Origin: Alphaproteobacteria bacterium
GTDB lineage: Bacteria; Pseudomonadota; Alphaproteobacteria; CAAHEQ01; UBA3637
DNA length: 64,000 nucleotides
Direction of reading: 5' to 3'
NCBI GenBank assembly: GCA_045605805.1
Contig: JAZUQR010000027.1
Coordinates: 64,001 to 128,000, forward strand
In this document: piece after piece, positions 15,601-31,841 of the stretch
How positions within the stretch are numbered: the first letter of the stretch is position 1
Layout: the number at the start of each line of letters is the position of its first letter
The notes under the pieces: generated by a model
Seen by the model: only the letters and a program-made list of their open reading frames with translations
Told to the model about the DNA's origin: nothing
Databases searched by the model: none
Translations under genes and position numbers: made by a program

Positions 15601-18600
15601 ACAATAAAATCGTTCATCATCAATTCCCCCACGGAACGATTTGTTTGTGGTTTATAAACCAGACTGTCCCGACCAACAACACCCATCAAAGAGGAAGAAG
15701 TTAAACCTCTGGCAAATGGGTTTGTACTATGAATACGCCCCACAACAGACCCTTTGTTCATCACATAATCTGGGGCTGCCACAGTGCCGATTTGACTGCC
15801 GGAAGCCGACACAACAGAACCGGTTTCTGTCATAATACCACACATTTTTTCATCTTCATTCAAAGAATATGCTCCAAACGGCACATAGCCGCCCAAAATT
15901 GTGCCTGCAATGTCATTCACACGATTGTTAAAGGCAACCCGCCCAACAACAGCGTTCATATTCATAACAGAGCCATTAAAGCCGGTCCATCCCATAACTT
16001 CCCCGGTGGCATTCAGGGCCAAACCATTCAAAAGAGGCCGCCCAATTAAAGAAGAATCCGCATTGGTTAAATAAGGCATCTGATTGTATGTCATACCCAT
16101 AAAACCGTTTCCATTATAAATCCCGCCATCAGGGGCCACACGGCCAATAAATAAACCATTTTTATCAACAACCGTTGCATTTTTCACCACAGTACCAACA
16201 ATTTTACCGGCAGCATCAAACACAAAACCATCCACACCCAATTGCCCAACAGTTTTGCCTTCACCATTTTCAACATCACCGTTAAAGCGTACAAATCCCA
16301 TAAAATGGCCATCCAAATCAACAACCATACCCAAAGGAAGAGCCGTACCAACCAAGCGACCATCTACACCCAAAACAGTGCCAAAACCAGACACAGCCCC
16401 AACATATGAAGCATTTTTGTCAAATACAGAAGCCTGATATTGCATACTGTTTTCTGTGGAAGCATCCGGCACAACAAAACCAATCACACCGGCCGAAGAA
16501 ACAACCACAGAGGTTTTATTCCACAAGGCGCCAACCACACGATTATCCGGAGTCACCGCAATTTCATTCGGTAACAAAGAGGCCACCTTAGTCCCATCCA
16601 TCATCACATCCCCTTTGATGGAAACCATACCAACATAATCACCAGAAGAAGATAACACAACCCCTTCACCCAAAACACCACCCATCAATTCATTATTGGA
16701 ATTATACACAGCACCATCTGCCAACACTTTTCCAATCACTTGACCAGAAGCATTGACAACCTGCCCTCGGGCATCAAACCGTCCCAACACAGCTCCTTTG
16801 AAATCCGCAAAATAAGAATCCTTTGGAAAAGCTCGTCCCACAATGCGTGTGGCTGTCATATCTAACACAGTACCATCCGGCATTAAACGCCCCAAGGGTT
16901 TGTTATCCACAGAAAGAGCTTGCCCCATAAAGGCATTATAAGTTCCAATAAGCCGACCATTCATATCAAAAATAAAACTATCCGGATGAACCAAACCAAC
17001 AATTTGGCGGGCCTTATTCAATACCCAACCATTCAAGGTTTGAGTTCCAACTTCGTTCTGTTGCGTATCCATACATTTGGAAGCCTTACAAGTCCAACCG
17101 GTGAATAGACCAACATCATTCAACACAGCCCCATTATAAGTACGAGTATCACCTTGCGAACTTGTGCCGTTTGAATTGACACAACCAATAACCTTGCCAT
17201 TCTTATCAATAATCTGGCCATCATAGCGCACCCGACCGGAAAAATCACCTTTTGGTGAAAACAGCGCCCCTGTTGGTGTTAAAACCCCCAAAGATTGTCC
17301 ATTTGCAGCCAGCGGTTCTTTTTCAAGATTGATACAGCCAATGACATTTCCTTTTTGATCAATCACCTGCCCCGACAAAGACAAAAGCCCCATCAAACGA
17401 CATCCTTCTGCCAAAACCGTCCCACGGGGAACAACAACACCCATCACCACAGAAGAGTCATTTAGTGTATATCCGTCCGAACGCACCTTTCCAATGGGTT
17501 GCAACGCAATTGTCACAACCGAACCATCTGGATAAACACTGCCCAAAACATTACAAGAATTACCCACCACACGACCTTTTTGTAAAACACCACCCAACAC
17601 TTGTTTGTCTGTATAAACACTGCCATCTGGTGCAACATTCCCCATAAGACTTCCCTTGCCATCCACAGCTTTCCCTTCGGAATTGACAAAGCCCAACACA
17701 TTTCCATCCATATCCACAACCAAGCTGTTGCCAATGACAGCCCCAATTGTGTTCATATTCGCATCTACCACATCACCATTGGGCATCACACGCCCCACAA
17801 CTTGACCATAAACATCTTTAACCGATCCATTCAAAGAAACTTCACCAAACGAACGACCGCCCAAACCAACAGCGATACCTTGCTTAACCACAGAACCAAC
17901 CAAAACGCCATTAGTATTCACAATAAAACCATTTTGTTGCAAAAAACCTTGAACCTTTTGTTCCGAATCAATCACAGCACCGGTTGGTAAAACAATACCC
18001 AAAACATTGCCTGACAAATCCATGGCCATTCCCCAAGAACGCAACACCCCAATTTGAATGCCAGCATCATCAAAAACAGTTTGATCCACCCGAGGCGTAC
18101 CAATTTTTTTGCCGGCCCCATCCACAACTTTCAATTCATTAGTCGCCTTATCAACCGTCAACTTACCCACAACAGCCCCTTTTGAATTGATAACCGAAAC
18201 CAAAGGAATGGCCGCCCCAAGCACATTAAAATCCGAATCCACAACGGTATTATCCAATAATAAACGCCCTACAAGCTTACCCTCTTTGTCTTCCACCGTC
18301 CTTGAATCGGTCACAAAACCCAAAAACTCATTTTTCAAATTTAACGCCACAAGTCTTGGTTCTGTCACACCCAGAACTTCCCCCTCGGGATTTTTAACAA
18401 TCCCTTCCTCAGGCGGTTCAGCCCCCTCTGGCAACTCTACTTCTGTACCATCAGGCAACACATAAATCGGTCTTGGCTTTTTTTCGGGTTTATTTTCAAC
18501 ACCACAATTTTCACAACAAACACATTCTTTGGAATCAATAGCTGTTCCCTTTAAGGTAATCTGACTCCGTTCATCCTTCAAAACACGGGAATTGTCTTCA

Positions 18601-19100
18601 TGCCACACAATCGTCAAAGTATTTTGAATACTTTGCACTTTAACAGGTGTCCAAGAAACTTTCAATACACATTCTTCATCCACATCCAATTCGGTACGCT
18701 CCATACAATCGCCCGATAAAACAAAGCCATGTTCAGAAATATCCGCCAAATAGCTTTCCACAAAAACCAACGGGCCGTTTTCTGCCCTTAAAAGAACCGT
18801 AGCTTCAGCCGTAGCCCCCAACACAACATCATCAAATGCAACTTCCTGAGGAGAAACAACCAGCTGCGTTCCATCCACAGAAAAATCGGGCAATTTATCA
18901 TCATCAGAAACATCATCCCCGAAGGTATTTATCACATTAGCAGAAACAGGCTCAGTTTGAATCAAATCAACAGGTTGTTCTTTCGGAGCGGAACACAGTA
19001 CCACAAAAAACAAAATCACAACCAACAGTCCAAACAAAGATAAAATCCATGTGGTTCTGCGTTTTGATTGTGCGGATAAACTTTCGTGACTTGTTGCCAT
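12639..19100 (-). CDS. virB10: Giant VirB10/TrbI protein (2153 aa): TM anchor, Ig-like domain, ~1500 aa of Gly/Val beta-hairpin repeats, VirB10 domain, acidic tail
   Basis: C-terminal IPAVLVRSIDT...LIPAGSRLIG...WNRLIRPDG...DAQGRGG...PNILYVPSGT; single N-terminal TM; lies between virB9 and virB11. Confidence 0.88.
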   Translation of the reverse strand: MATSHESLSAQSKRRTTWILSLFGLLVVILFFVVLCSAPKEQPVDLIQTEPVSANVINTFGDDVSDDDKLPDFSVDGTQLVVSPQEVAFDDVVLGATAEATVLLRAENGPLVFVESYLADISEHGFVLSGDCMERTELDVDEECVLKVSWTPVKVQSIQNTLTIVWHEDNSRVLKDERSQITLKGTAIDSKECVCCENCGVENKPEKKPRPIYVLPDGTEVELPEGAEPPEEGIVKNPEGEVLGVTEPRLVALNLKNEFLGFVTDSRTVEDKEGKLVGRLLLDNTVVDSDFNVLGAAIPLVSVINSKGAVVGKLTVDKATNELKVVDGAGKKIGTPRVDQTVFDDAGIQIGVLRSWGMAMDLSGNVLGIVLPTGAVIDSEQKVQGFLQQNGFIVNTNGVLVGSVVKQGIAVGLGGRSFGEVSLNGSVKDVYGQVVGRVMPNGDVVDANMNTIGAVIGNSLVVDMDGNVLGFVNSEGKAVDGKGSLMGNVAPDGSVYTDKQVLGGVLQKGRVVGNSCNVLGSVYPDGSVVTIALQPIGKVRSDGYTLNDSSVVMGVVVPRGTVLAEGCRLMGLLSLSGQVIDQKGNVIGCINLEKEPLAANGQSLGVLTPTGALFSPKGDFSGRVRYDGQIIDKNGKVIGCVNSNGTSSQGDTRTYNGAVLNDVGLFTGWTCKASKCMDTQQNEVGTQTLNGWVLNKARQIVGLVHPDSFIFDMNGRLIGTYNAFMGQALSVDNKPLGRLMPDGTVLDMTATRIVGRAFPKDSYFADFKGAVLGRFDARGQVVNASGQVIGKVLADGAVYNSNNELMGGVLGEGVVLSSSGDYVGMVSIKGDVMMDGTKVASLLPNEIAVTPDNRVVGALWNKTSVVVSSAGVIGFVVPDASTENSMQYQASVFDKNASYVGAVSGFGTVLGVDGRLVGTALPLGMVVDLDGHFMGFVRFNGDVENGEGKTVGQLGVDGFVFDAAGKIVGTVVKNATVVDKNGLFIGRVAPDGGIYNGNGFMGMTYNQMPYLTNADSSLIGRPLLNGLALNATGEVMGWTGFNGSVMNMNAVVGRVAFNNRVNDIAGTILGGYVPFGAYSLNEDEKMCGIMTETGSVVSASGSQIGTVAAPDYVMNKGSVVGRIHSTNPFARGLTSSSLMGVVGRDSLVYKPQTNRSVGELMMNDFIVDSDKMVVGTSAQIGFANSHNLKSLGMEDWTGAVWLGGKVIGTSFGNGFVEQGGSLIGGIFNAETIIDKAGKKIGESGFGAQVWGVNGQKIGSRMAFSSVLTPETIWAGGPLKTGFVVDDYAQKVGVVTADGSVMFDKNFKGRVLPDGSVAGVSEPAVYNTMPYVGHLVVQGVPVGYNPSVLGRTTVDGHLIDASGSVKYQILDDATILGKERPLEGQIVPFLPVLSLSNSVLGFVNGLGKVVNEAGEEVAALASNGAALPLTFEEAQTLKDKLQEVGGVLPETLVVDNSCKVIGQTAYDGTVVDGQGNVIGRMQPKGVATDPMGKELGFIVRYGPITSEKGVYLGRTLPDSTVVNPDGVVVGCVGRDKLLRDANGEPIGRLRARGPVFNNDKVMFGRVDAMGRVVGTDGKPQGTIGGLDNDDAYDFNGNKIGWMASNEDRLIFNPGGTLDYTISIDGEVKTGDGTSMGYYNQTTGTMTDKYGNTLPGFGDENDYVLLYDLTNKPVARLFNCELFKIPGEEKMGLLEANGNIRDEAGDIILTSTTDGKVYNPDGTDYGWFRGLGMDLRRCGLASIGERAGGRKITWGGKTYEIDPDTGMLVNGEGKVVGAWDPSTLRPYIWETDKTSPEYREPPPPPKEIVIPDEVKEQFLDLQKKRRLKMKEKMGSVPTILPGKAIQAKAKGKKDKDWSSVDVDKNVSTWSVDMSRVLLADKAIPAVLVRSIDTRYPTAPVTAIVERHIYAEEGRNILIPAGSRLIGSLSGSAMEFGTDQAAKIDISWNRLIRPDGAAFKFEAVSGDAQGRGGVAAYLDMQLMRKFLLPVGSSIGEAIVLKLTELNEKSVIASSSTASNGTTTSETPGSQIRKMFIDNFKDIWGQLMEMSGEVPNILYVPSGTRLTAFSNTDLWLRSVDDDVEDLEDQGLGDPSAAQLPSVNDSWVEKRTKSDEEETEEQEEEQEESDKIYVPEDTEDRKVDPVSPPIYQDDDRYF

Positions 19101-19110
19101 TGATAAATCC

Positions 19111-20769
19111 TTATTTCACCCTAATCACCGAACAAGAATAACCTCTTTTTCCTAATTTACGACACAGAGCATCGGCCATTTCTGCATTATCCAACGAACC
19201 AACACGCAACCGGAAAGTATCGGCCACGCCACCATTTGCCGCTGTATCCACAGAATAATATGGAACATATCCGCCAAGCAAATCAGCATTACTGGCATAA
19301 ATTTGTTCCCATAATTTTTCCAATTCACTAATTTCCGGTGAAGTTCCAAACTCAACCGAAATGGTTTCCTCCGGCACCACAGACAAATCAGAAACATCAT
19401 ATCCCACAGCAGGCACAGAAACAGGCGCACTGCCCCCAAAAACAGGCTCAGTGTTCACCACACCACAAGCTGTCGTTGAACCATTACAATAAGGATTGAT
19501 AGCACCTGCATAAGGATTCAATCCCCCTGTTTCGGTGGCATATCCTAAAGTCATCGCACCCGCATTCTGAGCCGGCACATAAGGATTTTGACCATGCAAT
19601 ACCGAACCACCCTTCACCGTCACTTCTGAATTCGGTACATCAGATGCCTGTACAGGCAATTGATTATGATACGCATAAGGCTGTTCGGCATAACCCGAAT
19701 AGTCGGTATATTCCAAACCGGCAGCCGGATCTCGTCTTAATTTAATACAAATCACCTTTTGTCCATTGCGCAATACCAAATCACCAATAGCTTCCACAAC
19801 AATCAATCGGCTGTTTGCGCCCCGAGTTCTAAACCCAACAGGAACTTCTGTTCCTTGAACAAGCAGGCTGACCACAGGCCGTTGTGTCATAGTTAAAGCC
19901 TTTGGCCCCAAATCAATATAAGTAAAGATATTATCCCGCCACACATTGTCCGGAGCAATATCCACATCATCCGGATTCGGCAAGAACATATCCAAATCAA
20001 ACTTTAATTGTTCAGGATCCATCGGAACCGTATTCCCCCATTCGCTTGCCTTATTTTGCGCAACCGAGTTGGCCTTTGTACTGACCGCAGTAGCCACACC
20101 AGAATGATTGATAGGCATAGAAGCCATTGTGGAAACCAACGATTCATTTTGCAACTGCCCCCCATTTGCAACGGGCGTCCATCTTGATCCCACTAACACA
20201 TCCACAACCGTTTGTGTAATTTTATCCGTATTAAAAGTTTCACTTCTTAAATAAAAAGCATAGCGATTACCGGAATGCCCAAACACAATCATATTACCAT
20301 CCACACCCAAAGAAGAAGGATCGGCATAAATCATCACAGAATTGGCCGACACAACCTCTCCATTAAAAGCATCAGGTGAACCAATATGCACTTTTTCAAT
20401 CAATTCCCACGAAGGCAAATTGATTAAAGTCATCATACCCTCCCGCACACGAATCGGCAAAACCGTATCTGGCGTCCAATTATACTTTGAATACCCTGGT
20501 TTAGATTGACCTGCCCCCATATGTGCCAAAGGATTATTCCACGCCTTTTGTTGCATCCCCAAAGCATGAATATAATCCAAATTCACATCATTATATTCAC
20601 CACTGGAAGCAGCAATAGCATCAGCAATTTGTTCTGATTGAGTATCTGTCGGCAAATGTACCTCAGCTTTAACAGAATTTGAAATCAGGCCCAAAATCCC
20701 TGTCAAAACTGGCAAAACTCCCCTAAAAAATACATTTTTATTCACCGGTTCCTCCTTATATCTAGACAT
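19111..20769 (-). CDS. virB9: VirB9/TrbG outer-membrane core protein fused to a C-terminal SPOR domain
   Basis: Signal peptide; IRVREGMMTLINLP, GNMIVF..GNRYAFYLRS, APDNVWRDNIFTYID, LVLRNGQKVICI; C-terminal FRLRVGSL..A.ALCRKL..RGYSC. Confidence 0.85.
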   Translation of the reverse strand: MSRYKEEPVNKNVFFRGVLPVLTGILGLISNSVKAEVHLPTDTQSEQIADAIAASSGEYNDVNLDYIHALGMQQKAWNNPLAHMGAGQSKPGYSKYNWTPDTVLPIRVREGMMTLINLPSWELIEKVHIGSPDAFNGEVVSANSVMIYADPSSLGVDGNMIVFGHSGNRYAFYLRSETFNTDKITQTVVDVLVGSRWTPVANGGQLQNESLVSTMASMPINHSGVATAVSTKANSVAQNKASEWGNTVPMDPEQLKFDLDMFLPNPDDVDIAPDNVWRDNIFTYIDLGPKALTMTQRPVVSLLVQGTEVPVGFRTRGANSRLIVVEAIGDLVLRNGQKVICIKLRRDPAAGLEYTDYSGYAEQPYAYHNQLPVQASDVPNSEVTVKGGSVLHGQNPYVPAQNAGAMTLGYATETGGLNPYAGAINPYCNGSTTACGVVNTEPVFGGSAPVSVPAVGYDVSDLSVVPEETISVEFGTSPEISELEKLWEQIYASNADLLGGYVPYYSVDTAANGGVADTFRLRVGSLDNAEMADALCRKLGKRGYSCSVIRVK

Positions 20770-20821
20770 GCCTTTTTTTCAGCTTATCTAAAAATGAAAT
20801 GAAAGTCCAGCAAAAAAACAA

Positions 20822-21526
20822 TTATTTATCTTTTTTTTCCAGAGAAAATCTATCCACTACAAAACCAAGCGGATTTTTTAAGCGATCAGCCCATGTCAAA
20901 TTTTTACGAGTTGGACGAAAAGAAGTTTCCAAGGTAGCAACCACTTCAAGCTCTTTGGGTTCAGCAGATGTCCGATCTGTATCAGTGAACTTTAATACAG
21001 CCGTCCATCGATCCGAACCATTTCTTCCCCCAGTGTGGGTTCTGCCCAAACTTGAAATCCGAACATTTCGGATAAAGTTGTCTTCAAAGGCCAAAGTCTG
21101 CCCCGGTTTAGATTCCTTTTCCACAAAATCATCATATACAGATTGAGAACTCATCCAAAAAACAACACCGGTAGACCCCCACCGTTCCTCCAACTCTTTC
21201 AAATCAGAACCAATACCGTAACGAGCCAACAGATATTGCCGCACCAACGATTCACTCAAATCCTTGGAATCCAATGTTTCTGCATCAGGGCGTTTAATGG
21301 CAATAATTTGCTGATCTTTATTCTGAACTTCCAAATAAAAAGGTTGCACACGCAACACAGGCGTCACATTAGCCAAAGCAATCAACAGAATAAGGTCACA
21401 CACAAGGGCCAAAACCATCATCACAACAAACGCCCGAGCCATCCACAAATAACGTTCTTCCTGCAACATGGCATGTGGTTCACGAACAGCTCTTTCTTCT
21501 GATTGAATAGGTGTATTTTCGGACAT
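20822..21526 (-). CDS. virB8: VirB8-family protein (second copy, B8b-like)
   Basis: Single N-terminal TM, VQPFYL, LVRQYLLARY, C-terminal KNPLGFVV. Confidence 0.85.
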   Translation of the reverse strand: MSENTPIQSEERAVREPHAMLQEERYLWMARAFVVMMVLALVCDLILLIALANVTPVLRVQPFYLEVQNKDQQIIAIKRPDAETLDSKDLSESLVRQYLLARYGIGSDLKELEERWGSTGVVFWMSSQSVYDDFVEKESKPGQTLAFEDNFIRNVRISSLGRTHTGGRNGSDRWTAVLKFTDTDRTSAEPKELEVVATLETSFRPTRKNLTWADRLKNPLGFVVDRFSLEKKDK

Positions 21527-21540
21527 AAAAACCCCTTATT

Positions 21541-21717
21541 TTACGAAAAATATCCCACTCCTTCAGGGGCTTTTTTCAATTCCAAACAAGCACAAGGTGA
21601 TTTTTTCAATTCAGAATACTCCATTCCAATGCCCACAGGGGCCTTTTCATAAACCGAACCACAAGCAGCCAAAACAACACCCACCAAGGCAATAACCACA
21701 TAAAAAATCTTACTCAT
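21541..21717 (-). CDS. virB7: VirB7-like small lipoprotein (58 aa)
   Basis: SD AGGAGG, lipobox LAAC, KKSPCAC motif, located between two virB8 genes. Confidence 0.7.
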   Translation of the reverse strand: MSKIFYVVIALVGVVLAACGSVYEKAPVGIGMEYSELKKSPCACLELKKAPEGVGYFS

Positions 21718-21784
21718 AAAACTTCCTCCTTTTGCCAAACATATAACTAATTTAACACAAACAAAAAAAATATCAACAAAAAAA

Positions 21785-22402
21785 TCACTTGCGTTCAGAT
21801 TCATCTACCCGAATAACCACAAAACCGTTTGGATTTGCAAAACGCTTTGCCAGCACAGCCCGAGACGGCCAATAATTAAACTCAACAACAAGTCGTTTTT
21901 GTTTTTTTTGCCACTGTAAAAAATTATCAAAGGTATATAAATCATAATCAACAGAATAATATCCAGATTCTCTTGTAACCGATAAAATATCTATGGTTTG
22001 GGGCGGCATATTGGCTATTTTTTCAAAAGAAGGATATTCTTTCAAAAAGGCCTGATAGCTGGCAGGCGAAGAAAGATAAGATAAAAGTCCATAAGCCCCC
22101 CACCTTCGTTCCATTTCTGCCACATCTGGGATACGAGTATAACGCAAGTCTAAATAATAACGCAATAACATTTCATCCGTTTGTGTGCGATTCACACCTT
22201 CCAGCGGATATATTTGCGCTAAATCCTCGTTAAAAACATTAAAAACACGATCCTTATCTTGAAAGACCTGCGCCACAACCTGTATTTGCAAAACGGCCTG
22301 AAAAACGGTCACAGTAAGGAAAAAAGTAAAAATCCACAAAACCCAACATACAAGCATAAACAAACGAGTTCTGTACCACGGACTTTGTTCCTTAAAGGAC
22401 AT
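21785..22402 (-). CDS. virB8: VirB8-family protein (first copy, B8a-like, more divergent)
   Basis: N-terminal TM, LLRYYLDLRY, ERRWG shared with the other copy, C-terminal ANPNGFVV. Confidence 0.75.
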   Translation of the reverse strand: MSFKEQSPWYRTRLFMLVCWVLWIFTFFLTVTVFQAVLQIQVVAQVFQDKDRVFNVFNEDLAQIYPLEGVNRTQTDEMLLRYYLDLRYTRIPDVAEMERRWGAYGLLSYLSSPASYQAFLKEYPSFEKIANMPPQTIDILSVTRESGYYSVDYDLYTFDNFLQWQKKQKRLVVEFNYWPSRAVLAKRFANPNGFVVIRVDESERK

Positions 22403-22413
22403 AGCAATTCTCC

Positions 22414-23580
22414 CTACAAAGGCTTGCAAAAATCAAAATTACCTTGAAGGCTTTGTGCCTGTTGTACACTTTGATTGACCATTTTTTCCGACTCTGTTTG
22501 CAGGGCAGAAATCATCTTGCGATGCGAAGTATTTTCAGCCATTTTCTGTTCTACCTCAAAAGCATTGGTTTCGGTCAAGAAAACAATACCGTTTTCATCT
22601 TTTTCCATCGCATCAATCAACACTTGTTGTCGTGCCTGTGGCGAATACTGGTCAAAACGCTGCATTTCGGCAAAAGCCTCAGGGAATTGAGATTCAACTG
22701 CTGACAACACCTGTTGTTTGGTTTTGGAACGGGTATTGCGACGAGCCGCAGCCTTTGGATACTTTTGATCTTGCAAATTTAATTTTTCAACATACGCCTT
22801 TGCCTCTTCCAAATAGACAGATTTTAGGCTCTGTAAAGATTTGCGCACTTGACGCACCTCTGACACCTTTTTGGGATCAAACGCAGGCATCTGAATACCC
22901 ACCTTGGATAATTTAGCCACAAAATCAGAAATCATTTTTTTATAAGTTTTTTCAAAATCTGATTGCGCTATCCCCATATTGTGTTTTGAATCATCTGCCA
23001 GAACAAGTTCTTCCAAACCAAAACCAACGAGATTTTCTTTAAGATCTTCCGGTACCTTCCGCTTTTTCTTATCAACAGGTTCCGCCCCCCATTTTTTGTT
23101 ATTTTCAAGGGTGTCTGTAATCAAAGCAACCTCAATATTCTTTTTGCGTTCCAACAAAGATTGGCGATCCAATGCAGAAGCGGGAAAAATGCTGTCAGGC
23201 GCATAAACCCTGTTGGATTGCATATTTTTGGTCTGTTCTTTATAAGCCGCACTAACCTTTTTCAAAACCTCTGATGCATTCTTAAACCGACCAAAGCGTT
23301 TTTCATTACATTCAAAAATCTCATCAAAATAGCTTTGAGCCTCTTTAACATTTTTCAACAGCTGATCATGTTGTTCGGCAAGCGTTTGCAAATCCGGCAA
23401 TTGAGTCATCAAATTATGCACATCCAAAGCCTTGTATAACGAGTCATTATGCTCAGGCAGAACCTTGGTTAAAGTCCGTGTTTCAATTTTAATCACAGGA
23501 GGAGCCCCAAAGCGAAGTGCCTCAGCACTGGTGCTAATCAAAACAAAAGAACAAACACAAATCAATAAAGTCTTTTTCAT
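22414..23580 (-). CDS. Secreted/periplasmic coiled-coil hypothetical protein in the T4SS cluster
   Basis: Signal peptide (SAEA), K/E/Q-rich helical sequence, tight spacing to neighbours. Confidence 0.7.
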   Translation of the reverse strand: MKKTLLICVCSFVLISTSAEALRFGAPPVIKIETRTLTKVLPEHNDSLYKALDVHNLMTQLPDLQTLAEQHDQLLKNVKEAQSYFDEIFECNEKRFGRFKNASEVLKKVSAAYKEQTKNMQSNRVYAPDSIFPASALDRQSLLERKKNIEVALITDTLENNKKWGAEPVDKKKRKVPEDLKENLVGFGLEELVLADDSKHNMGIAQSDFEKTYKKMISDFVAKLSKVGIQMPAFDPKKVSEVRQVRKSLQSLKSVYLEEAKAYVEKLNLQDQKYPKAAARRNTRSKTKQQVLSAVESQFPEAFAEMQRFDQYSPQARQQVLIDAMEKDENGIVFLTETNAFEVEQKMAENTSHRKMISALQTESEKMVNQSVQQAQSLQGNFDFCKPL

Positions 23581-23583
23581 TTT

Positions 23584-24642
23584 TTATTGCCCTCCTCCTG
23601 CAGAAAATTCAGGTCTGTTATCATTTCCAACAATTTCAAGTTCTTTTTTCAATGGCTTGAAATCAAGTTCCAAAGTTTCGGCCCGCACTTTTGTTCTGAC
23701 GGCTAAAACATTCATTTTCAAAAGCATTAAAGAATCATATAAAGCCCGTCTGGTTGCCAAAGTGTTCAACGCTTGGTTTTTGGAATTATATTGTGCCTGT
23801 ATCTTGGCATCCATCTCTGCCAAAGAAGATAACTGACGTTTCAATTCCATTGCCGAAGCCATAGCCTTAATACTGCGCTGTTGCGCCCGATAACGAATTG
23901 CCCGTTGTTCTTTGGCCACATTTTGTAAAGAACGTTGATCTTCCAAAAGTTCATTTCTGCGATATTCCATCAATTCACGAGGCGAAGCAGACGAAGCATC
24001 CTGCAAGTTTTGATACATATCTTTATCAAAAGACACTGCCTGCAAACGAGTTGGATCAATACCCAATTTATCCATAATCGCCACAATCAAATTTCTATCA
24101 GCCGGCCCAATCCATTTATCAGTCACATGGCCTTGAACCCCCGCAAAATCGGCCGTGATTTTGGTTGAATCACGCATAAACTGGTTCACCGCCGCATGTC
24201 CCAATTGAGAAACGCCAGATAACCCATCCAAAGTAATGCCCAACCCAACCCACGCAGATTCAGCATGAATAGGTGCTTGCGCTGTAGTTGTAAGGGTCTG
24301 ACTCATTTTCCAAGAAGGAAGATACTGTTTCAGCTGTTGAATCGGCCAGCCCACTGCCATACCAGTTAATGGTGTAGACAGTGCCATATCCACCATAGCC
24401 GCTGAATCACCAGCATCGCTAGAATAATCTGCACCACCAGCCGTATGTTCCACTGGAGTGGCTTCAGGATTTGATTCAGGTAAATCCTTTGAAGTATCAA
24501 AGGCCTGCGCTCGTGAAGTATCCGCTAGTGATTCTCTAGTTTCTCTACCCACTAGGAATTCTGTAATTCCAGCAGTCACCGGCATCACCAAAACACCGTT
24601 TAGCAAAGAAATCGCACAAACACCTAATAATAATTTTTTCAT
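23584..24642 (-). CDS. Secreted hypothetical protein, T4SS-associated paralog array member 5
   Basis: Signal peptide MKKLLLGVC..VTA; helical C-terminus; 4-nt overlap with the upstream gene. Confidence 0.7.
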   Translation of the reverse strand: MKKLLLGVCAISLLNGVLVMPVTAGITEFLVGRETRESLADTSRAQAFDTSKDLPESNPEATPVEHTAGGADYSSDAGDSAAMVDMALSTPLTGMAVGWPIQQLKQYLPSWKMSQTLTTTAQAPIHAESAWVGLGITLDGLSGVSQLGHAAVNQFMRDSTKITADFAGVQGHVTDKWIGPADRNLIVAIMDKLGIDPTRLQAVSFDKDMYQNLQDASSASPRELMEYRRNELLEDQRSLQNVAKEQRAIRYRAQQRSIKAMASAMELKRQLSSLAEMDAKIQAQYNSKNQALNTLATRRALYDSLMLLKMNVLAVRTKVRAETLELDFKPLKKELEIVGNDNRPEFSAGGGQ

Positions 24643-25487
24643 GCACCTTCTCCTTCTTCATCATCGGCCACATCACCTGCACCTGCCTCACCTGCACCGG
24701 CATTATCGGCCTCATCTGTTGCCGCCACATCTTCTTCTGTCATCAACAAAATGGGTTGAACACTTAAAAACTTGGCCGCATCCAGTTCCATCAATTGTAT
24801 CTGCATCACAATATCCGCCATCAAGGCCCGATTGATTGCCTTCCATGTCTGGTCCGTTCCGGAAGTCGCCCCAATAGAGCCATCCCCGTTGATATCAGAA
24901 GAAACCACATTCATATCCTCAATCAACTTTTCTTGAACGGTATAAGCCGTTTTAACATATTCCTTGGCAATTTTGGTTAAATATTTTTCTCGTTCTTTAC
25001 GAATAGCCTCCTGTTTTTCTTCTGTGGCATCGGCATTATTTTCCAAAAAGAACATCTCCTTCACAACTTGCTCCATATCGGCCGAATCAGTCAGTTTTTT
25101 ATTCAAAGGCGAATAAGGCGTTTTAATTTTATCGGTTAAATAGGTATTATGTAAATAGGTATAAGTATCCAAGGGCATAGTGCCGGAATCTGGTTTGCCT
25201 GTCCCTGGTTCAGACACATACGAAGTGGTACCATCCACCAAAGCCCCAACATCGGCCTGTGTCACATTTAACCTCGCCCCCATTTCGGGCTCTTCCCCCA
25301 AGGCCAGCAAATTTAGAAGAGCCGATCCCGTGTTACGCACAGAGTCAGTAATTGATACAGGATCTGATACTTTGTCAGGCACCACCTTCATCGTCTTAGG
25401 AGGAAGGTCCGCCCCCCACACATCCGAAACATATACGGAAGATAAACATCCCAAAGCAATCAAAAAACGAAACATAAAACTTTTCAT
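24639..25487 (-). CDS. Secreted hypothetical protein, array member 4, with acidic tail
   Basis: Signal peptide; ATEEKQEAIRKEREKYL...MELDAAKFL; 4-nt overlaps at both ends. Confidence 0.7.
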   Translation of the reverse strand: MKSFMFRFLIALGCLSSVYVSDVWGADLPPKTMKVVPDKVSDPVSITDSVRNTGSALLNLLALGEEPEMGARLNVTQADVGALVDGTTSYVSEPGTGKPDSGTMPLDTYTYLHNTYLTDKIKTPYSPLNKKLTDSADMEQVVKEMFFLENNADATEEKQEAIRKEREKYLTKIAKEYVKTAYTVQEKLIEDMNVVSSDINGDGSIGATSGTDQTWKAINRALMADIVMQIQLMELDAAKFLSVQPILLMTEEDVAATDEADNAGAGEAGAGDVADDEEGEGA

Positions 25488-26344
25488 TCTGTATCCTCCT
25501 TCAATTCAGAAACATCCACACGATCAATACCGCTGAAAATGATATTTCGATACGATTGCGCCCGTAAATCATCGGCATATAAAAATAACATATCCACCGC
25601 AGCCGAAGAAGCATAAACCGATAAATCGCCCAAACCGGCTCCAACGAATTCCGCCAAAGTCTCTTTGGCAGCCACACTGTTCACCAATTTTTCCAAATTA
25701 TCATAATTGGCATCCACATCCTGTAAATAAGAATCCGCCATACTGGATGCGGCCGTGGATGAAGCCACCAAAACCTCGTTTTGCCGTGCCTGAGCACATT
25801 CAGAAGGTTCACACTCTTCACCGGTTCCCACCGAACAGACGCAATCTTGGTTCACAGCCAAATCATCCGATACAAACATATACGAAGCCACATTCTCACG
25901 CACCCGATCAAAAGTATCGCCTTTTTTACCCATTTTATCCTTGGCATCTTCCCCCAAAACCAAAGTACCATCTTCTTCACTTTGTGTAATAATGGCAATT
26001 GTGCTGTCTGGGATAGACATAGCCAATTCTTCTGCCTTCATAATTTCTTCTTGTGCAGATTCGGGCGTTTTGGTATCACATCCTGAATTGCCGGTTGCCG
26101 ACACGCCACAATGGCCTTGCTCACGATACATCCCAATGTTTGTTTGCAACTTTTCTAACCCATTTGTCACATCATAATGAATTGTTTCCTGCTTACGATT
26201 CCATTCCCGTGCCATATAACCAAACGTCGTTTCCATAGCAGTCTGATAAAGACAACCAATAGATGGACACCAACTGGCTGCATAACAAGGGGCAGCACCA
26301 AGCAACCCTATACATCCCACCGAAACAAATAAAAGTTTTCTCAT
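25484..26344 (-). CDS. Secreted Cys-containing hypothetical protein, array member 3
   Basis: SD plus ATG 26344, signal peptide ending CYA, several Cys pairs, helical C-terminus. Confidence 0.7.
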   Translation of the reverse strand: MRKLLFVSVGCIGLLGAAPCYAASWCPSIGCLYQTAMETTFGYMAREWNRKQETIHYDVTNGLEKLQTNIGMYREQGHCGVSATGNSGCDTKTPESAQEEIMKAEELAMSIPDSTIAIITQSEEDGTLVLGEDAKDKMGKKGDTFDRVRENVASYMFVSDDLAVNQDCVCSVGTGEECEPSECAQARQNEVLVASSTAASSMADSYLQDVDANYDNLEKLVNSVAAKETLAEFVGAGLGDLSVYASSAAVDMLFLYADDLRAQSYRNIIFSGIDRVDVSELKEDTE

Positions 26345-26360
26345 AATCGTTCCCCCTTTG

Positions 26361-27467
26361 TTATTCAACCATCTGCAACGCACTGGCCGCTTCATTGGCC
26401 ACCTGTTGACCTTGCACCATATTCAACAAGTTCAATCGTTGAGCCAAAGTTAAATCCAAGCTCACCAAAACTTTTGTGTTGGCCACAACACTGCCCCCGC
26501 CCGATCCGATATAAGTAGAAAGGCGGTCAAATTGTGCTTTTTCCGAAGCCGCAAGACTGGAAGCCAAATCAGCCCGAGCCACACCAGCCGTCCCCACCAT
26601 TTGAATGTGTGCTTTTCGTCTGAAATCAGCCTTGCGCTTTTCCTCCTCAGTCATTTGATCAGAAGGGTCACTGCTGTTGAAGGAACCACCAAAAACCGAG
26701 TAATCTGAAAAAGCGGATTGCATAGAAGACCCAAAGTCTGTGATATAACCACTCCAAACAACAGAAGAATTAGATGTTTTATTGGTATCCGTGGTTATCT
26801 CTTGTAATTCGGCAGTTTTTGTGCCAAAACCCGCCTGAATCACCGGATTAGCCCCAATCAACTCTTCGGCTTGTGTTAAAGGGCTTTCGGCCACATCTTC
26901 CAAAGCCTCTAAGCCCACATTTTTCAAAGTGGAAACATGCACTTCGGTTTCATCCAAAGTTGCACTGACCATATTACAGAAAAAACCGCCTGTACCACCC
27001 GATTCTTTAATTTTTTCACATTCGGATTCAATACTGCCCAAACTACCAATATGACGAATCTGAGACTGTAATTCCGGAATATCTTTACTCCATTGGGCCT
27101 CTTTCGTGCGGGCATCATTTAATTGCACAATATCCAAAGATGCCCCCGCCACATCCCAATTCAATCCAAAAGTATCTGAACCAGTAAATACATAAGGAGT
27201 AGGCTCTCCTTCAGGAGTCACAACAACTCCAGGCTTCGATATAGAAAAGTGTGCCTGCACGAAAGAAGTCACACCAGTAATGAAACCCCAGGCCGCCAAT
27301 CCTTGACTTAATGCCTTTTGTGCTTTGGCCGTACCAGAAGAAACTTGGTTGGTTGCCAAACCACCTTGTTGCCACACCTCACCTTCTTCGGCCACGGCCA
27401 CCATCACACCGCCCGACACGCCACACAACAGCAATGCTGACATCAAAAGTTTTTTACTGAATTTCAT
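26361..27467 (-). CDS. Secreted hypothetical protein, array member 2
   Basis: SD GGAGG plus ATG 27467, signal peptide ending AVA; MTEEEKRKADFRRKAHI...ANEAASAL. Confidence 0.7.
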   Translation of the reverse strand: MKFSKKLLMSALLLCGVSGGVMVAVAEEGEVWQQGGLATNQVSSGTAKAQKALSQGLAAWGFITGVTSFVQAHFSISKPGVVVTPEGEPTPYVFTGSDTFGLNWDVAGASLDIVQLNDARTKEAQWSKDIPELQSQIRHIGSLGSIESECEKIKESGGTGGFFCNMVSATLDETEVHVSTLKNVGLEALEDVAESPLTQAEELIGANPVIQAGFGTKTAELQEITTDTNKTSNSSVVWSGYITDFGSSMQSAFSDYSVFGGSFNSSDPSDQMTEEEKRKADFRRKAHIQMVGTAGVARADLASSLAASEKAQFDRLSTYIGSGGGSVVANTKVLVSLDLTLAQRLNLLNMVQGQQVANEAASALQMVE

Positions 27468-30400
27468 TATCAACCTCCCGTTCATTCAACAACCGAGCCG
27501 CTTGCACACCCATTTGGGCCGAAGACAAAGCCACAGCACGCAAACTTTCAAGCAAGACATAGCGCCCCACATCCTGAGTCAAGCCAAACGCCCCCGCTTC
27601 ATTTTGCACACCTTCCGAGAAAGAAATCAACACATTGGCCCGATCAGCAAACTTGTTGGACACAGCGTTCATTCCTTCGGAAATCTGCACCGCCGCATTT
27701 ACATATTGTTTCAAAAGCATTTGGCGTTTTGCCTGAATCAAAGCCACCTGTTCATCGGTCAGATATTTCTTTTCATCCTCTGGTTTTTCCTCTTTTTCTT
27801 CTTCTGGCACTTCCAAAGAGGCAGAAGTCCCCGCTTGTGAGCCAGCACCAGCCAGTGTACCGGTTTGAACCACCGTTTTTGCTTCTTCTTCTTCAAAAGT
27901 TTCATCCAAAAGTTTCAAATCCACATTGGCGTTCTTTAACAATTCGGCCACAACCATTGCCGACCCCGACACAGTGCTGGGCATAGAAGCATCCACATCC
28001 ACATCCGACAAAGCCGTGTCATCCACAGTCCCCACAGCGGCACCAATCTCACCGGCCAAAACGTTCACATCCTTCCGCAAAGCAAGCTCTGTTTCCGTCA
28101 CGAACGGTGTCATAGCCACCGTACCAATCCGCACCAGATCCTGTAAATCAACCTCCCGTGGGGTTTCTGCGCCTTGTTGAACTTGATTCACCTCTGCCTC
28201 TTTGGCATCAGCTTCCGCTTTCGTCCCCTCAACAGTGGCAATTTTGTTATTAAGTTCCTCGAACTCATCGGAAGAAATCGTTTTATTATTCAAAGCATCA
28301 TACGCCAACGATCTGGCAGTCTCAAAGTCACTGCTGTTTATCGCATCAGCAAACTGATTGCTCCGAACTGTGTCATTCCTAAAGAAGTTTTCAGCAGTCG
28401 ATAAAGCAGCGCTCTTTGCTATTGTATAGTTCTTCTTCGCAGCAGTCACTATGGAATCCAGTTCAGTTATAGTAGCATTATACTTATCTATATCACCCTT
28501 TCCATCTTCTTTGGCTTTTCCTAACGCTTTCTGCGCTTCACCAAGTTCCTCTCGCGCTTTTTGAATTTCTTTCTGTGTTCCTTTCGTCACAATTAGTTTT
28601 TTCACCTTAGCCTGCGCCTCATCCACTTTTACCTGTGCCGCATCAATAGCATATTGTCTATACCTATACTGATTCGTATTTTGCGCATGGTCTTGCAACA
28701 AGCTTTGATAGCCTTTTCCGCCATTAACACTAGATAGCTGATTTATATAGTTCATAATATCAGCCCCAAAATCGTCTTCTTTTCCAGAAAAACGAATTTG
28801 CTGATTCGCTGAATCAAAAGTAATGCCATACAGATTCTTCAATGTTGCTGCTTGTTCACTTGTCATGGTATAACCATTATCCGACCAACCAAGATCCTCC
28901 CCACCCAATAAATTGCCTATCGCACTTGCGTTGTCGTGGTTCAAATCGGAATACAAAACCGCATCACCGGCCCCCATATCTGCTGCGTCCGTCAATATTT
29001 GGTTGGAGCGATTCACAATAGCATCAGAGTTTTTCTTAACTTCCTCATATGATATTTCTTCAACATTACCTTCGGCGTCAAGTTTTACGCCAGAGTCATT
29101 TTTCTCGTCGCCATCTTGGGCTTCTGCCCCTGCCTTTGCGCCACCTTCTTTGTCTTGATTTATGCTAGCCGTTACCTTTTTTTCCTCCTTTGGGTCCTCC
29201 GCTTTGGCTATATTTTTAGTTTTGGTCCCGGCCGAATCTGCATTAGCAAATTGTGTTGCTTCGGCCTTTTTGTCCGTCGTCTCATCAATCACTTCCCCTT
29301 CAGATTGAGCCGTCACTGCCTCTGGTGTGGCAACCGCGTTAATTTTTAAGCTTGATGAATCCCCGTCTTTAGTAGGGGGGACACCGCCTTGTTGAGCAGG
29401 GGGCTCATCCCCTTTCCCATCCACCTTTAGCGTTGCTACACCATTTTTGGCTTCTACTTTTGCGTTAACTCCTACAGAGCCATCCTCAGACGTTGTCTTA
29501 GCCTTCACCTGATTCTCGTTCAGCGAAGCACCAGTCCCTGTTTCAGTCCTCTTGGCTCCCACACGACTTTCTCCTGTTTCGTACCGACCAGTAGTTTGTC
29601 CATCCTTAGTCTGGGCCACATAACTACCATTGGTAAATTCTACAACAGACGAACCATCGGAAAAAACACTAACGCTTTTAACATCGTTCAAATGACTTCC
29701 ATCACCCATGATTGCCGACACGTCTGCCTGTTGTACCAAATCTTTATGCCAGAAACTTCCCGAATCCCATTTGTTCTTGCTCTCATCCCAGGTGTATGAA
29801 CGCCCATCAACGGTGATAGTCTTACTGTCGCCAGCCGTAAAGACCTCATAAACACCCCCATTTACCACAACATACTTACCCTTTGGTACTGGAGGAAGGG
29901 TTGCTGCAGATGTTTGCGAGGATGAAATAGTTGGTATTGTTCCGTCTTGTATAATCGTCTCATTCCGGGCATTGGTTTCCAACGTCACGGTCTTGTTTTG
30001 ATTGCTCAGACCTTGCTTAGCACCATCAGCAGTCACTGTCTGCCCTGTTTTAGATGTCTTTCCATTATTCGTATTGGTAGAAGTCTGTGTAACCTCATTA
30101 GCAGTAATATCCTGATTCTGTTCGCTGGAACTACCATTGCGATTATTCAGGTTCTGACTAGTCTTCACATTGTCCAGTGTCTGATTAAAAGAGCCACCTC
30201 CCTTTCCTGCTGCTGATTCCACCCTCCACGTACCTGACACTTCTTTCTCCCCTGGCCTCAAGGTCACAGAAGCATTCGCCTTCCCATCATTGGCCTTTGC
30301 AGTCAGACTATTGTCTCCCATATAGGCCGAAGCCGTTGCATTAGAATCAGCACTTATACGATTCTCCATACCAACTTTTATTTCATTTCCGCTTTTATCC

Positions 30401-31065
30401 GTATAAGATCGGGCTACAACAGTCCCTTTACCAGTGTCACCCACTGCAACCTGCGAAGGGGGAACATAATTATTTTTCCCCTCTGTTCCTTGCGCAGGAT
30501 AATATATCTTTGCCGCACCATTTACTGACTCCACATAGACATAACCAGATTGATTCTTCTTAGTGGGATCAGTTGTGACAGTCCAAGAACGGCCAAGAAC
30601 ACCACCAGCCTCCGTCACATTCACAGCGTTTGTAATATTTTGTCTGCCAGCTTCATATTGAGTCCCTTGATAGTTTATATACCGAGCTTGAGAAATCCCA
30701 CCAGAAGCGTCCCTATGATAAGTGTTGCCATTCACTGTTGTAGATGTTTCATCGTCATAAAAATTCACAACAGTCATATTACCCTTACCATTGTTCGGAT
30801 TCACCACATATGTTTGTAGTTTCACCGGACCACTGGATGAAACACGCCCATATCGTCTAGCTGTTTCATTGGCAGTATAATAACTGCCCTGTTTTAATTC
30901 TGCCGCCTTATGTGTGCTATAATAATGACCATTGGCACCTTTATACAATGTTTTACCGTTTGCAAATTGCACTTTTTCAACCTTTGCCCACACATCATTC
31001 GGCAACAACACACAGGCACTGGCCAAAACCGTGCCAACAAGCAAGACTTTAACGAAATTTCGCAT
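27454..31065 (-). CDS. Large secreted adhesin-like protein (1203 aa), array member 1
   Basis: SD GGGGAGG, signal peptide ending VWA, T/S/N/G-rich low-complexity body, coiled coil, C-terminal LTDEQVALIQAKRQMLL...VQAARLL. Confidence 0.75.
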   Translation of the reverse strand: MRNFVKVLLVGTVLASACVLLPNDVWAKVEKVQFANGKTLYKGANGHYYSTHKAAELKQGSYYTANETARRYGRVSSSGPVKLQTYVVNPNNGKGNMTVVNFYDDETSTTVNGNTYHRDASGGISQARYINYQGTQYEAGRQNITNAVNVTEAGGVLGRSWTVTTDPTKKNQSGYVYVESVNGAAKIYYPAQGTEGKNNYVPPSQVAVGDTGKGTVVARSYTDKSGNEIKVGMENRISADSNATASAYMGDNSLTAKANDGKANASVTLRPGEKEVSGTWRVESAAGKGGGSFNQTLDNVKTSQNLNNRNGSSSEQNQDITANEVTQTSTNTNNGKTSKTGQTVTADGAKQGLSNQNKTVTLETNARNETIIQDGTIPTISSSQTSAATLPPVPKGKYVVVNGGVYEVFTAGDSKTITVDGRSYTWDESKNKWDSGSFWHKDLVQQADVSAIMGDGSHLNDVKSVSVFSDGSSVVEFTNGSYVAQTKDGQTTGRYETGESRVGAKRTETGTGASLNENQVKAKTTSEDGSVGVNAKVEAKNGVATLKVDGKGDEPPAQQGGVPPTKDGDSSSLKINAVATPEAVTAQSEGEVIDETTDKKAEATQFANADSAGTKTKNIAKAEDPKEEKKVTASINQDKEGGAKAGAEAQDGDEKNDSGVKLDAEGNVEEISYEEVKKNSDAIVNRSNQILTDAADMGAGDAVLYSDLNHDNASAIGNLLGGEDLGWSDNGYTMTSEQAATLKNLYGITFDSANQQIRFSGKEDDFGADIMNYINQLSSVNGGKGYQSLLQDHAQNTNQYRYRQYAIDAAQVKVDEAQAKVKKLIVTKGTQKEIQKAREELGEAQKALGKAKEDGKGDIDKYNATITELDSIVTAAKKNYTIAKSAALSTAENFFRNDTVRSNQFADAINSSDFETARSLAYDALNNKTISSDEFEELNNKIATVEGTKAEADAKEAEVNQVQQGAETPREVDLQDLVRIGTVAMTPFVTETELALRKDVNVLAGEIGAAVGTVDDTALSDVDVDASMPSTVSGSAMVVAELLKNANVDLKLLDETFEEEEAKTVVQTGTLAGAGSQAGTSASLEVPEEEKEEKPEDEKKYLTDEQVALIQAKRQMLLKQYVNAAVQISEGMNAVSNKFADRANVLISFSEGVQNEAGAFGLTQDVGRYVLLESLRAVALSSAQMGVQAARLLNEREVDNEIQ

Positions 31066-31099
31066 AAAAACCTCCCCTTAAAAAAAGTACTTTTAATTC

Positions 31100-31128
31100 A
31101 CTGTACATACTTTTTTGATGCATTGCAA
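31100..31128 (-). promoter_or_regulatory. sigma70-type promoter heading the T4SS cluster
   Basis: TTGCAA-N17-TACAGT on the - strand, ~35 nt upstream of the ATG. Confidence 0.55.
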
Positions 31129-31147
31129 CACTTTTTTTCAAAAAAAC

Positions 31148-31180
31148 AAAAAAAAACGCCCGCAAAGTGACGTTTTTTTC
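31148..31180 (-). terminator. Probable infC terminator separating it from the T4SS cluster
   Basis: On - strand: AAAAAAACGTCACTTTGCGGGCGTTTTTTTTT imperfect hairpin plus T-tract. Confidence 0.5.
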
Positions 31181-31200
31181 TTTCCCCCTTCCATAAAGGC

Positions 31201-31752
31201 TTATTTGGGCGATACCAACATCCCCATATTGCGCCCTTCCAACTTAGGCGCTTGTTCAATTTTCGCCACTTCGGCCACATCTTCGGCCACCCGCTTCAAA
31301 ACAGCCTCGCCCAAATCTTGATAGGACAATTCACGCCCACGAAACCGCAAAGTGAACTTCACCTTGTTGCCTTCGGCCAAAAACTTTTTCGCATTGCGCA
31401 TTTTCACCAAATAATCATTGTCCCCAATGTTGGGGGTGAACTTGATTTCTTTGGTTTCCTGTGTTTTTTGCTTTTTCTTGGCTTCGTTTTTGCGTTTTTG
31501 CAATTCATATTTATATTTGCCGGCATCCATAATTTTACACACAGACCCACTTGGGTTGGCCGATATTTCCACCAAATCCAAACCGGCCTCATCCGCCCGC
31601 CGCAACGCCTCACGCAAGGACACAAGCCCCACATTGATGCCGTTTTCGTCAATCAACCGAATTTGTAATGCATTGATTTTGCCATTGATGCGTGGTTCAT
31701 CTTTATTTGTGTTAGGCGCACGCATATCGCCTCTGTCAAAGTTTTGAATAAT
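31201..31752 (-). CDS. infC: Translation initiation factor IF-3 (ATT start)
   Basis: INGKI, GLDLVEIS, GKYKYE, KEIKF, RFRGRE; GGAGG followed 8 nt later by ATT at 31752. Confidence 0.95.
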   Translation of the reverse strand: MIQNFDRGDMRAPNTNKDEPRINGKINALQIRLIDENGINVGLVSLREALRRADEAGLDLVEISANPSGSVCKIMDAGKYKYELQKRKNEAKKKQKTQETKEIKFTPNIGDNDYLVKMRNAKKFLAEGNKVKFTLRFRGRELSYQDLGEAVLKRVAEDVAEVAKIEQAPKLEGRNMGMLVSPK

Positions 31753-31841
31753 GGTATAATCCTCCAAAAAAGTTTATAAACAAACTCATTATATTCATTT
31801 TTTTCAAGACATTCAAGTTTTTTTTTGCTATCCTCTTTATT

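Follow-up and report, generated by a model that had tools for sequence, protein, structure and literature searches.

Exported accessory subunits of type IV secretion systems (T4SSs) have been described in several arrangements. According to PMC3164655, CagH, CagI and CagL are the products of adjacent genes, have a common C-terminal hexapeptide and are required for pili, and PMC10194873 describes CagI-C as resembling CagL. In Bartonella, the Trw system carries tandemly amplified variant copies of trwJ (virB5) and trwL (virB2), which are thought to diversify target binding (PMC2610397). For the rvh T4SS of Rickettsia, PMC2653234 describes a scattered gene layout in which virB8 is duplicated, VirB6-like genes are large and several in number, and virB5 is not recognisable. 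Here we describe an array of exported proteins, designated A to F, that is encoded upstream of virB8 and virB9 in a window of 64,000 nt (the whole stretch of DNA analysed, to whose positions all coordinates refer unless a contig or locus is named). The organism is a gut alphaproteobacterial metagenome-assembled genome (MAG) lineage, which a Rickettsiales label does not describe. With a probability of about one half, we consider that A-E and F are Sec-exported accessory subunits of a chromosomal, scattered VirB-type T4SS, that each of A-E joins a conserved module to a diverging N-terminal part, and that A, C and D, with them probably B and possibly E, have modules that go back to one ancestor.

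The array has points of likeness to, and of difference from, each of these systems; in function, its nearest analogues would be VirB5, the CagH/CagI/CagL subassembly and Bartonella Trw. Like VirB5, TraC and TrwJ, A-E are Sec-exported and largely helical, have lengths of a few hundred residues and are encoded just upstream of virB6-virB8. Unlike in VirB5, however, the conserved part of A-E is C-terminal, whereas the VirB5 likeness seen in relatives is N-terminal; in addition, sizes reach 1203 aa, and there are five to six different families in place of one gene. CagH, CagI and CagL have their hexapeptide at the extreme C-terminus, whereas here a helical module of about 100 residues is followed by unrelated tails, and the last residues of A-E contain no common hexapeptide (…EVDNEIQ, …ALQMVE, …LKEDTE, …EEGEGA and …SAGGGQ). 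By analogy with Bartonella Trw, several variants of a pilus-associated surface component may be co-encoded, although the Bartonella copies are recent, recognisable VirB5 duplicates and the families here are linked, and only some of them, by profile-profile comparison. The scattered T4SS genes, the duplicated virB8, the large VirB6-like genes and the lack of a recognisable virB5 recall what is described for rvh, but VirB10 is giant here, and the available part of PMC2653234 does not mention an exported array for rvh. Our literature search found no paper on this array; under the putative lineage names RF32 and CAG-239 it found survey papers only, none of them on type IV secretion for RF32.

Organisation and distribution of the array

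A preliminary description of this DNA had proposed five secreted proteins with overlapping or near-abutting genes at the head of a T4SS cluster. The open reading frames (ORFs) A-E on the minus strand bear this out. Computed with the longest-ORF starts, the overlaps are 32 nt for A/B, 35 nt for B/C and 4 nt for both C/D and D/E. A sixth exported protein, F, which had not been counted, adjoins E at a gap of 3 nt and in turn overlaps a virB8-like gene by 16 nt. The genes of the array are as follows.

27454-31065, minus strand: gene A, ORF of 1203 aa, exported; first gene of the unit
26361-27485, minus strand: gene B, ORF of 374 aa, exported
25484-26395, minus strand: gene C, ORF of 303 aa, exported; Cys185 and Cys200 invariant in the family alignment
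24639-25487, minus strand: gene D, ORF of 282 aa, exported
23584-24642, minus strand: gene E, ORF of 352 aa, exported
22414-23580, minus strand: gene F, ORF of 388 aa, exported; sixth array member, without the putative shared module

The upstream neighbour of A is infC, and a terminator-like hairpin (31181-31148) stands between the two genes; therefore, the array heads this portion of the T4SS genes. Promoter and terminator scans gave counts not above those of shuffles, and this hairpin is the only noteworthy item from them.

All six N-termini have an n-region with K/R followed by a hydrophobic h-region, as signal peptides do, and most orthologues passed a hydropathy test (A 15/16, B 15/16, C 16/16, D 15/17, E 16/17 and F 16/16). 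The signal peptides previously seen on all five proteins were recovered in this way, by a crude hydropathy heuristic and not by a trained signal-peptide predictor.

None of A-F reached the cut-off of any Pfam or NCBIfam family. The same was true of 24 array proteins of relatives scanned with Pfam, and none of the 50 scanned of the 85 representatives of the D family was above a curated Pfam cut-off. Searches against PDB sequences with all six family profiles returned nothing relevant at E<=10, and a search of the ESM Atlas with D had a best score of 0.86, the clusters matched being unnamed. Within its own genome (1.21 Mb, 98.85% complete), phmmer against 6,579 six-frame ORFs gave only self matches for A-F. 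An A-position protein of a sister genus (L079:2515-3288, plus strand) has a near-threshold match to FliD_C (E 2.7e-5; 24.2 bits vs the cut-off of 25.4); FliD is the flagellar cap protein.

The relatives are uncultured Alphaproteobacteria MAGs, many of which come from gut samples of animals or humans. Of the 24 other genomes of the family, 18 yielded D-type proteins; none was found in 16 genomes that represent 16 further families of the class. Downstream of D, virB8/virB9 were present in 17 of the 18 D-anchored loci, the remaining locus being cut by a contig end. Homologues unlinked to T4SS genes, which would have spoken against the preliminary description, did not occur among the D-anchored loci with enough sequence. 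In 16 genus loci the genes stand in the order A-B-C-D-E-F, D, E and F are also present in two further genera, and each array family is a stable orthologous lineage across genera. Among 80 virB9-anchored loci, most have comparable arrays upstream of the virB8 pair. Those from the same family mostly hold six exported proteins in this slot. The deeper lineages hold three to six, of which the last is an F-related protein of 1065-1926 aa.

Among 1.84 billion protein cluster representatives, the D family has 85 representatives (50% identity) at E<=1e-3, and in D homologues of 390-607 aa the matched region is their C-terminus. The A orthologues of the 16 genus loci have lengths of 533-1403 aa. Of all array members, F is conserved most widely (phmmer cluster c1, 76 proteins, 318-1926 aa). 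Its length is 388 aa here, about 510-590 aa in most relatives and 1065-1926 aa in the deeper lineages, and its conserved tail is of the Cys-x-Phe or FDFxxC type.

Conservation of the C-terminal modules and strain variation

In orthologue alignments, the last 100-120 residues of A-E have an identity of 0.30-0.40 to the window protein vs 0.15-0.26 for the preceding part, and gaps are far fewer in the C-terminal modules than in the N-terminal parts. F has no such contrast (0.32 vs 0.30). In each of the five families the alignment has two helices separated by a variable loop. The modules are placed as follows.

27475-27810, minus strand: A module, about residues 1086-1197; conserved block of family A
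26364-26654, minus strand: B module, about residues 278-374; conserved block
25526-25798, minus strand: C module, about residues 200-290
24753-25028, minus strand: D module, predicted helical hairpin, about residues 154-245; hub of the HHalign links
23665-23982, minus strand: E module, predicted helical hairpin, about residues 221-326

Contigs from four public runs were compared with 19111-31767 of the window. A single contig of run X5 covers 28305-28945 and 30986-31102; the 2040 letters that the window has in between are replaced in it by 1194 others. Loose ends occur at these two junctions in runs X1 and X3 as well, whose contigs do not cover 29239-30926. The signal peptide and the C-terminal third of A are kept, and the body of about 680 residues is replaced between strains.

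28945-30986, minus strand: strain-variable cassette of A, about residues 28-707; from the X5 contig and the loose ends in X1 and X3

A conserved C-terminal helical module behind unrelated, variable N-terminal bodies had been proposed for each of the five proteins. This picture is supported by the conservation among orthologues, by the lack of pairwise similarity between the proteins and by the replacement of the A body.

Two observations concern other parts of these proteins. In several B proteins, the N-terminal 140 or so residues are matched by the C-family profile (best E 9.1e-5, database of 765 local ORFs). The matched region includes the signal peptide, and a part of the front half may thus be common to B and C as well. 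The acidic Gly/Ala/Asp/Glu tail of D (24639-24710, minus strand) is variable in length, one contig having 105 letters for 42, and loose ends at this tail show a short repeat of the GCATC type.

Similarity between the modules

The modules were compared by HHalign, with deep alignments made from all loci and database matches (15 to 136 non-redundant sequences each). Three of the ten window pairs reached P<1e-3: A-D (P 1.5e-4, probability 51%, 90 columns), C-D (P 6.4e-4, probability 28%, 101 columns; reversed control 0.67) and B-C (P 8.4e-4, probability 24%, 75 columns). A-C followed with P 0.0083 and B-D with P 0.051. Shallow alignments of 16-17 sequences had given P values of 0.0006-0.75 overall, and of 0.0009-0.03 for A-B, A-C and A-D. 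Families of relatives added further links. The strongest was between E and c9, a family of deeper-branching relatives (P 4e-5, probability 70%, 91 columns), and c9 was also linked to D (P 1.8e-4, 111 columns). In addition, D-posA had P 5e-4, posA-posB P 3.7e-4 and A-c18 P 0.0012. A merged D+A+C+c9+posA profile matched B with P 0.0024, its reversed controls being >0.2.

Several controls were used for these values. With reversed profiles, P<1e-3 occurred in 0 of 136 comparisons vs 8 of 136 in the forward direction, and P<0.05 in 3 vs 26. In column shuffles, 59-60 per pair, none reached the observed score for A-D, C-D, B-C or E-c9; the observed scores were 24-35 and the shuffle maxima 12-17. The C-termini of SurA, FolD and F had no P below 0.023 against the modules, and the F C-terminus compared with the A-E modules by HHalign had P 0.22-0.81. 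In hmmsearch of the family profiles vs the 765 local ORFs, all cross-matches were sub-threshold. A single-linkage phmmer cluster that brought together proteins from the A, D and E positions in sister genera was rejected because its links were Ser/Gly/Thr-rich or GSVSN-type repeats.

In the A-D alignment, LTDEQVALIQAKRQMLL stands opposite ATEEKQEAIRKEREKYL and VQAARLL opposite LDAAKFL, which is the register of the alignment originally made by eye. The motifs quoted there are present; counted from the Arg, the second motif is 73 residues away in A, 74-80 in B and 69-72 in D, which is near the 73-78 given but not exactly so. The proposal that the C-termini of all five align was borne out in part. 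For A-D, C-D and B-C the likeness is beyond chance at the profile level only, and it is absent from BLASTP and jackhmmer searches; the all-vs-all HHalign suggested as its check gave these three pairs and left E unlinked to A-D. Of the two members said to fit more weakly, the fifth (E) does so, being joined only through c9, whereas the third (C) fits better than was thought, with the links to D and B given above. Profile-level similarity exists for three to four families. From these comparisons, whose links are of moderate statistical strength, we conclude with fair confidence that one module is common to A, C and D; B probably shares it, and E possibly does so, through c9.

Predicted structures

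AlphaFold2 (AF2) models were made for D, from an alignment of 17 rows, and for E. In the D model, residues 19-102 are not confident, and the predicted local distance difference test (pLDDT) of 10-residue blocks in 101-250 is mostly 78-91, except around the hairpin loop (residues 191-210), where it is 59 and 46. Three short helices are followed by helices at 156-197 and 207-243. The E model ends in helices at 221-237, 244-280 and 288-326 with pLDDT 62-80. Common to both models is a predicted long terminal helical hairpin of 37-42 + 37-39 residues.

Fold searches with both models gave no match at E<=0.001. In the Foldseek list of D, the R388 stalk supplies the TrwJ/VirB5 chains at places 1, 2 and 11 (E 0.47-2.7), and CagL is in place 10; the matched PDB entry titles name a TrwJ/VirB5-TrwI/VirB6 stalk complex. 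The E list is made up of generic hairpins, among which CagL takes places 17, 28 and 44. A Foldseek comparison with VirB5 and CagL had been proposed as a check, and TrwJ/VirB5 does head the D list, but the E values are weak. The TrwJ and CagL matches of D, like the CagL matches of E, are within the background of generic helical bundles. The modelled fold is of the three-helix-bundle or hairpin type, which is compatible with VirB5 and CagL and diagnostic of neither. A complex prediction for the A, B, C and D modules, with D as the partner, scored 0.28 (mark 0.32) and counts neither for nor against binding.

Interpretation and alternative explanations

If A-E and F are accessory T4SS subunits, as we propose, an ancestral C-terminal module would have diverged beyond pairwise recognition, giving rise to those of A, C and D, probably to that of B and possibly to that of E. 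Each of A-E would then combine a rapidly diverging N-terminal part with a module of about 100-120 residues whose core is a long antiparallel hairpin of helices. Through its module, each protein would most plausibly dock on the secretion machine, at the periplasmic or outer part, or A-E would dock on each other. By analogy with VirB5 or CagL/CagI/CagH, the docking position could be the stalk, the tip or the pilus base. The variable N-terminal parts would be displayed and would contact the target surface, the clearest case being the strain-swapped 680-residue body of A. Free evolution of the N-terminal parts together with exchange of the A body is as expected of exposed, target-contacting surfaces.

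Such a system would mean that widespread uncultured small-genome gut Alphaproteobacteria build a chromosomal T4SS with five to six lineage-specific exported subunits, which would stand where other systems have one VirB5. The subunits would be ancient subfunctionalised paralogues and not recent duplicates as in Bartonella. They would also offer a handle on gut attachment targets, since the putatively exposed body of A is exchanged between strains. The analysis defines several unannotated protein families and provides a testable docking-module hypothesis for VirB5-less T4SSs.

Several results weigh against a common origin of the modules and are those on which the strongest alternative can draw, namely that A-E are unrelated exported helical proteins that have only the operon in common, their C-terminal likeness being a convergent composition of amphipathic helix-loop-helix type. 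BLASTP of the six proteins all-vs-all found nothing significant (best E among A-E pairs 2.6), and the A-D alignment made by eye is listed at E 6.0. With jackhmmer (inclusion E 1e-4) the five families stayed apart, E being merged with the E-position proteins of sister genera only. HHalign had no link for A-B, A-E, B-E, C-E and D-E (P 0.11-0.61), the merged profile matched E with a P of only 0.05, the B-C reversed control reached P 0.013, and the probabilities among window families are only 24-51%. The models have a low overall confidence (mean pLDDT 61 for D and 54 for E), and their structural matches are generic three-helix bundles and hairpins. Moreover, long amphipathic helices can converge, and both of our nulls are imperfect for that. 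However, the aligned stretches of 75-111 columns are long, run colinearly from end to end and keep the register seen by eye, the excess of forward over reversed matches and the column shuffles do not agree with chance, and the helical C-terminus of F stays outside the network together with those of SurA and FolD. We regard unrelated proteins as a somewhat unlikely explanation.

The next alternative concerns VirB5. The preliminary description had inferred a diversified VirB5-like family, and for the window proteins this was not borne out. The VirB5 model PF07996 had no match in A-F at E<=0.1 and none in the whole genome at E<=1, although in 29 of 401 genomes of the phylum it does detect VirB5. 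With a low-diversity VirB5 profile no match to A-F was obtained, and HHalign against an alignment of 27 mature VirB5 sequences gave no significant match (A P 0.79, B 0.16, C 0.0035, D 0.13 and E 0.46). The (I/V)P(V/T)x(D)-type mature N-terminus found in 25 of 32 fetched VirB5 ORFs is absent from A-E of the window. What the array does have in common with VirB5 is a Sec-type signal and a gene position upstream of virB8, the virB6-like genes being elsewhere in the genome. A-E are thus not proven copies of VirB5. The idea is kept alive by two hints, the Foldseek list of D and the family c7, which consists of 16 B-position proteins of sister genera. This family matches VirB5 with 94% probability (P 1.3e-7, 117 columns) when signal peptides are included and with 84.8% (P 6.5e-6, 40 columns) without them, a likeness that is N-terminal.

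It could accordingly be asked whether only the B-position gene is a true, highly diverged VirB5, the others being lineage-specific additions to the core complex, periplasmic or in the outer membrane, like CagM, Cag3 and CagT, with no role as tip or adhesin. The c7 match would fit this, as would an otherwise expanded machine with a VirB10 of 2153 aa and a VirB9 with a SPOR-like end. Furthermore, window B falls in phmmer cluster c3, in which it is joined through its C-terminal module (E 5e-8) to compact proteins whose mature chains open with VirB5-like motifs of the GIPVF-, VYPVLD- or IPIVS-type. Many B-position proteins from other genera do have a VirB5-type N-terminal motif, but window B lacks it and has no profile match to VirB5, the compact c3 proteins have a P of only 0.011 against the VirB5 profile, and B is not linked to c7, either by C-terminal modules (P 0.61) or at full length (P 0.073). 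Replacement of the A body also fits exposure to selection better than it fits a buried core subunit. We consider this explanation unlikely.

A bolder form of our proposal would take A-E as five anciently diverged VirB5-class subunits that form a hetero-pentameric stalk or tip through their C-terminal hairpins. The solved R388 machine reportedly carries a VirB5 pentamer, which A-E would replace with one gene per position, A having a strain-swappable receptor-binding cassette that sets the target cells. This we hold to be quite improbable.

Finally, Sec-secreted adhesins or toxin-like factors that are merely co-operonic with the T4SS and act independently of it would account for the Sec-type signals of all members in place of T4SS C-terminal signals, for the very large, N/T/S/G-rich and strain-variable A and for the lack of any family assignment tying the array to T4SS function, but such factors are very unlikely here, as translational coupling runs into the virB8-like gene, the virB8/9 linkage is strict across genera and deeper lineages, the array occupies the virB5-virB7 slot of canonical operons and no member was found elsewhere in its own genome.

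Neighbouring T4SS genes

Downstream of F, the minus strand continues with genes of the secretion machine.

21785-22429, minus strand: virB8-like gene, 214 aa; Pfam VirB8 E 0.0023, under the cut-off, with phmmer cross-matches to VirB8 of relatives
21541-21804, minus strand: small lipoprotein in the VirB7 position, 87 aa; LAAC lipobox-like motif, assigned by position only
20822-21526, minus strand: virB8; Pfam VirB8 E 1.6e-16
19111-20769, minus strand: virB9; Pfam CagX E 1.2e-16, with a SPOR-like C-terminal end (20.7 bits vs the cut-off of 21)
12639-19100, minus strand: giant virB10, 2153 aa; Pfam TrbI E 2.9e-24 and Bflower_2 E 1.9e-64 in 7 stretches
11645-12628, minus strand: virB11; NCBIfam VirB11 E 4.6e-44, below the equivalog cut-off, and Pfam T2SSE

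The other T4SS genes are scattered. On the contig of the array, and far from virB8-11, are virB2 (C27:24390-24662) and virB4 (C27:223347-223910). Two VirB6-like genes, with open frames of 610 and 798 aa, are on another contig (C26:14478-18693), and virD4 is on a third (C4:1807-3390). Pfam VirB3 had no match in the genome.

The two VirB8-type genes stand on either side of the small lipoprotein gene (20822-22429), and the same pair is present in nearly all of the 80 virB9-anchored loci. In VirB10 the TrbI domain occupies residues 1875-2072, and N-terminal to it are the seven Bflower_2 stretches and an ASH-like domain; the size of the protein is reminiscent of CagY. The C-terminal extension of VirB9 terminates in a SPOR-like peptidoglycan-binding segment, and in all relatives listed the protein ends in ...CRKLGRRGxSCSVxRxx.

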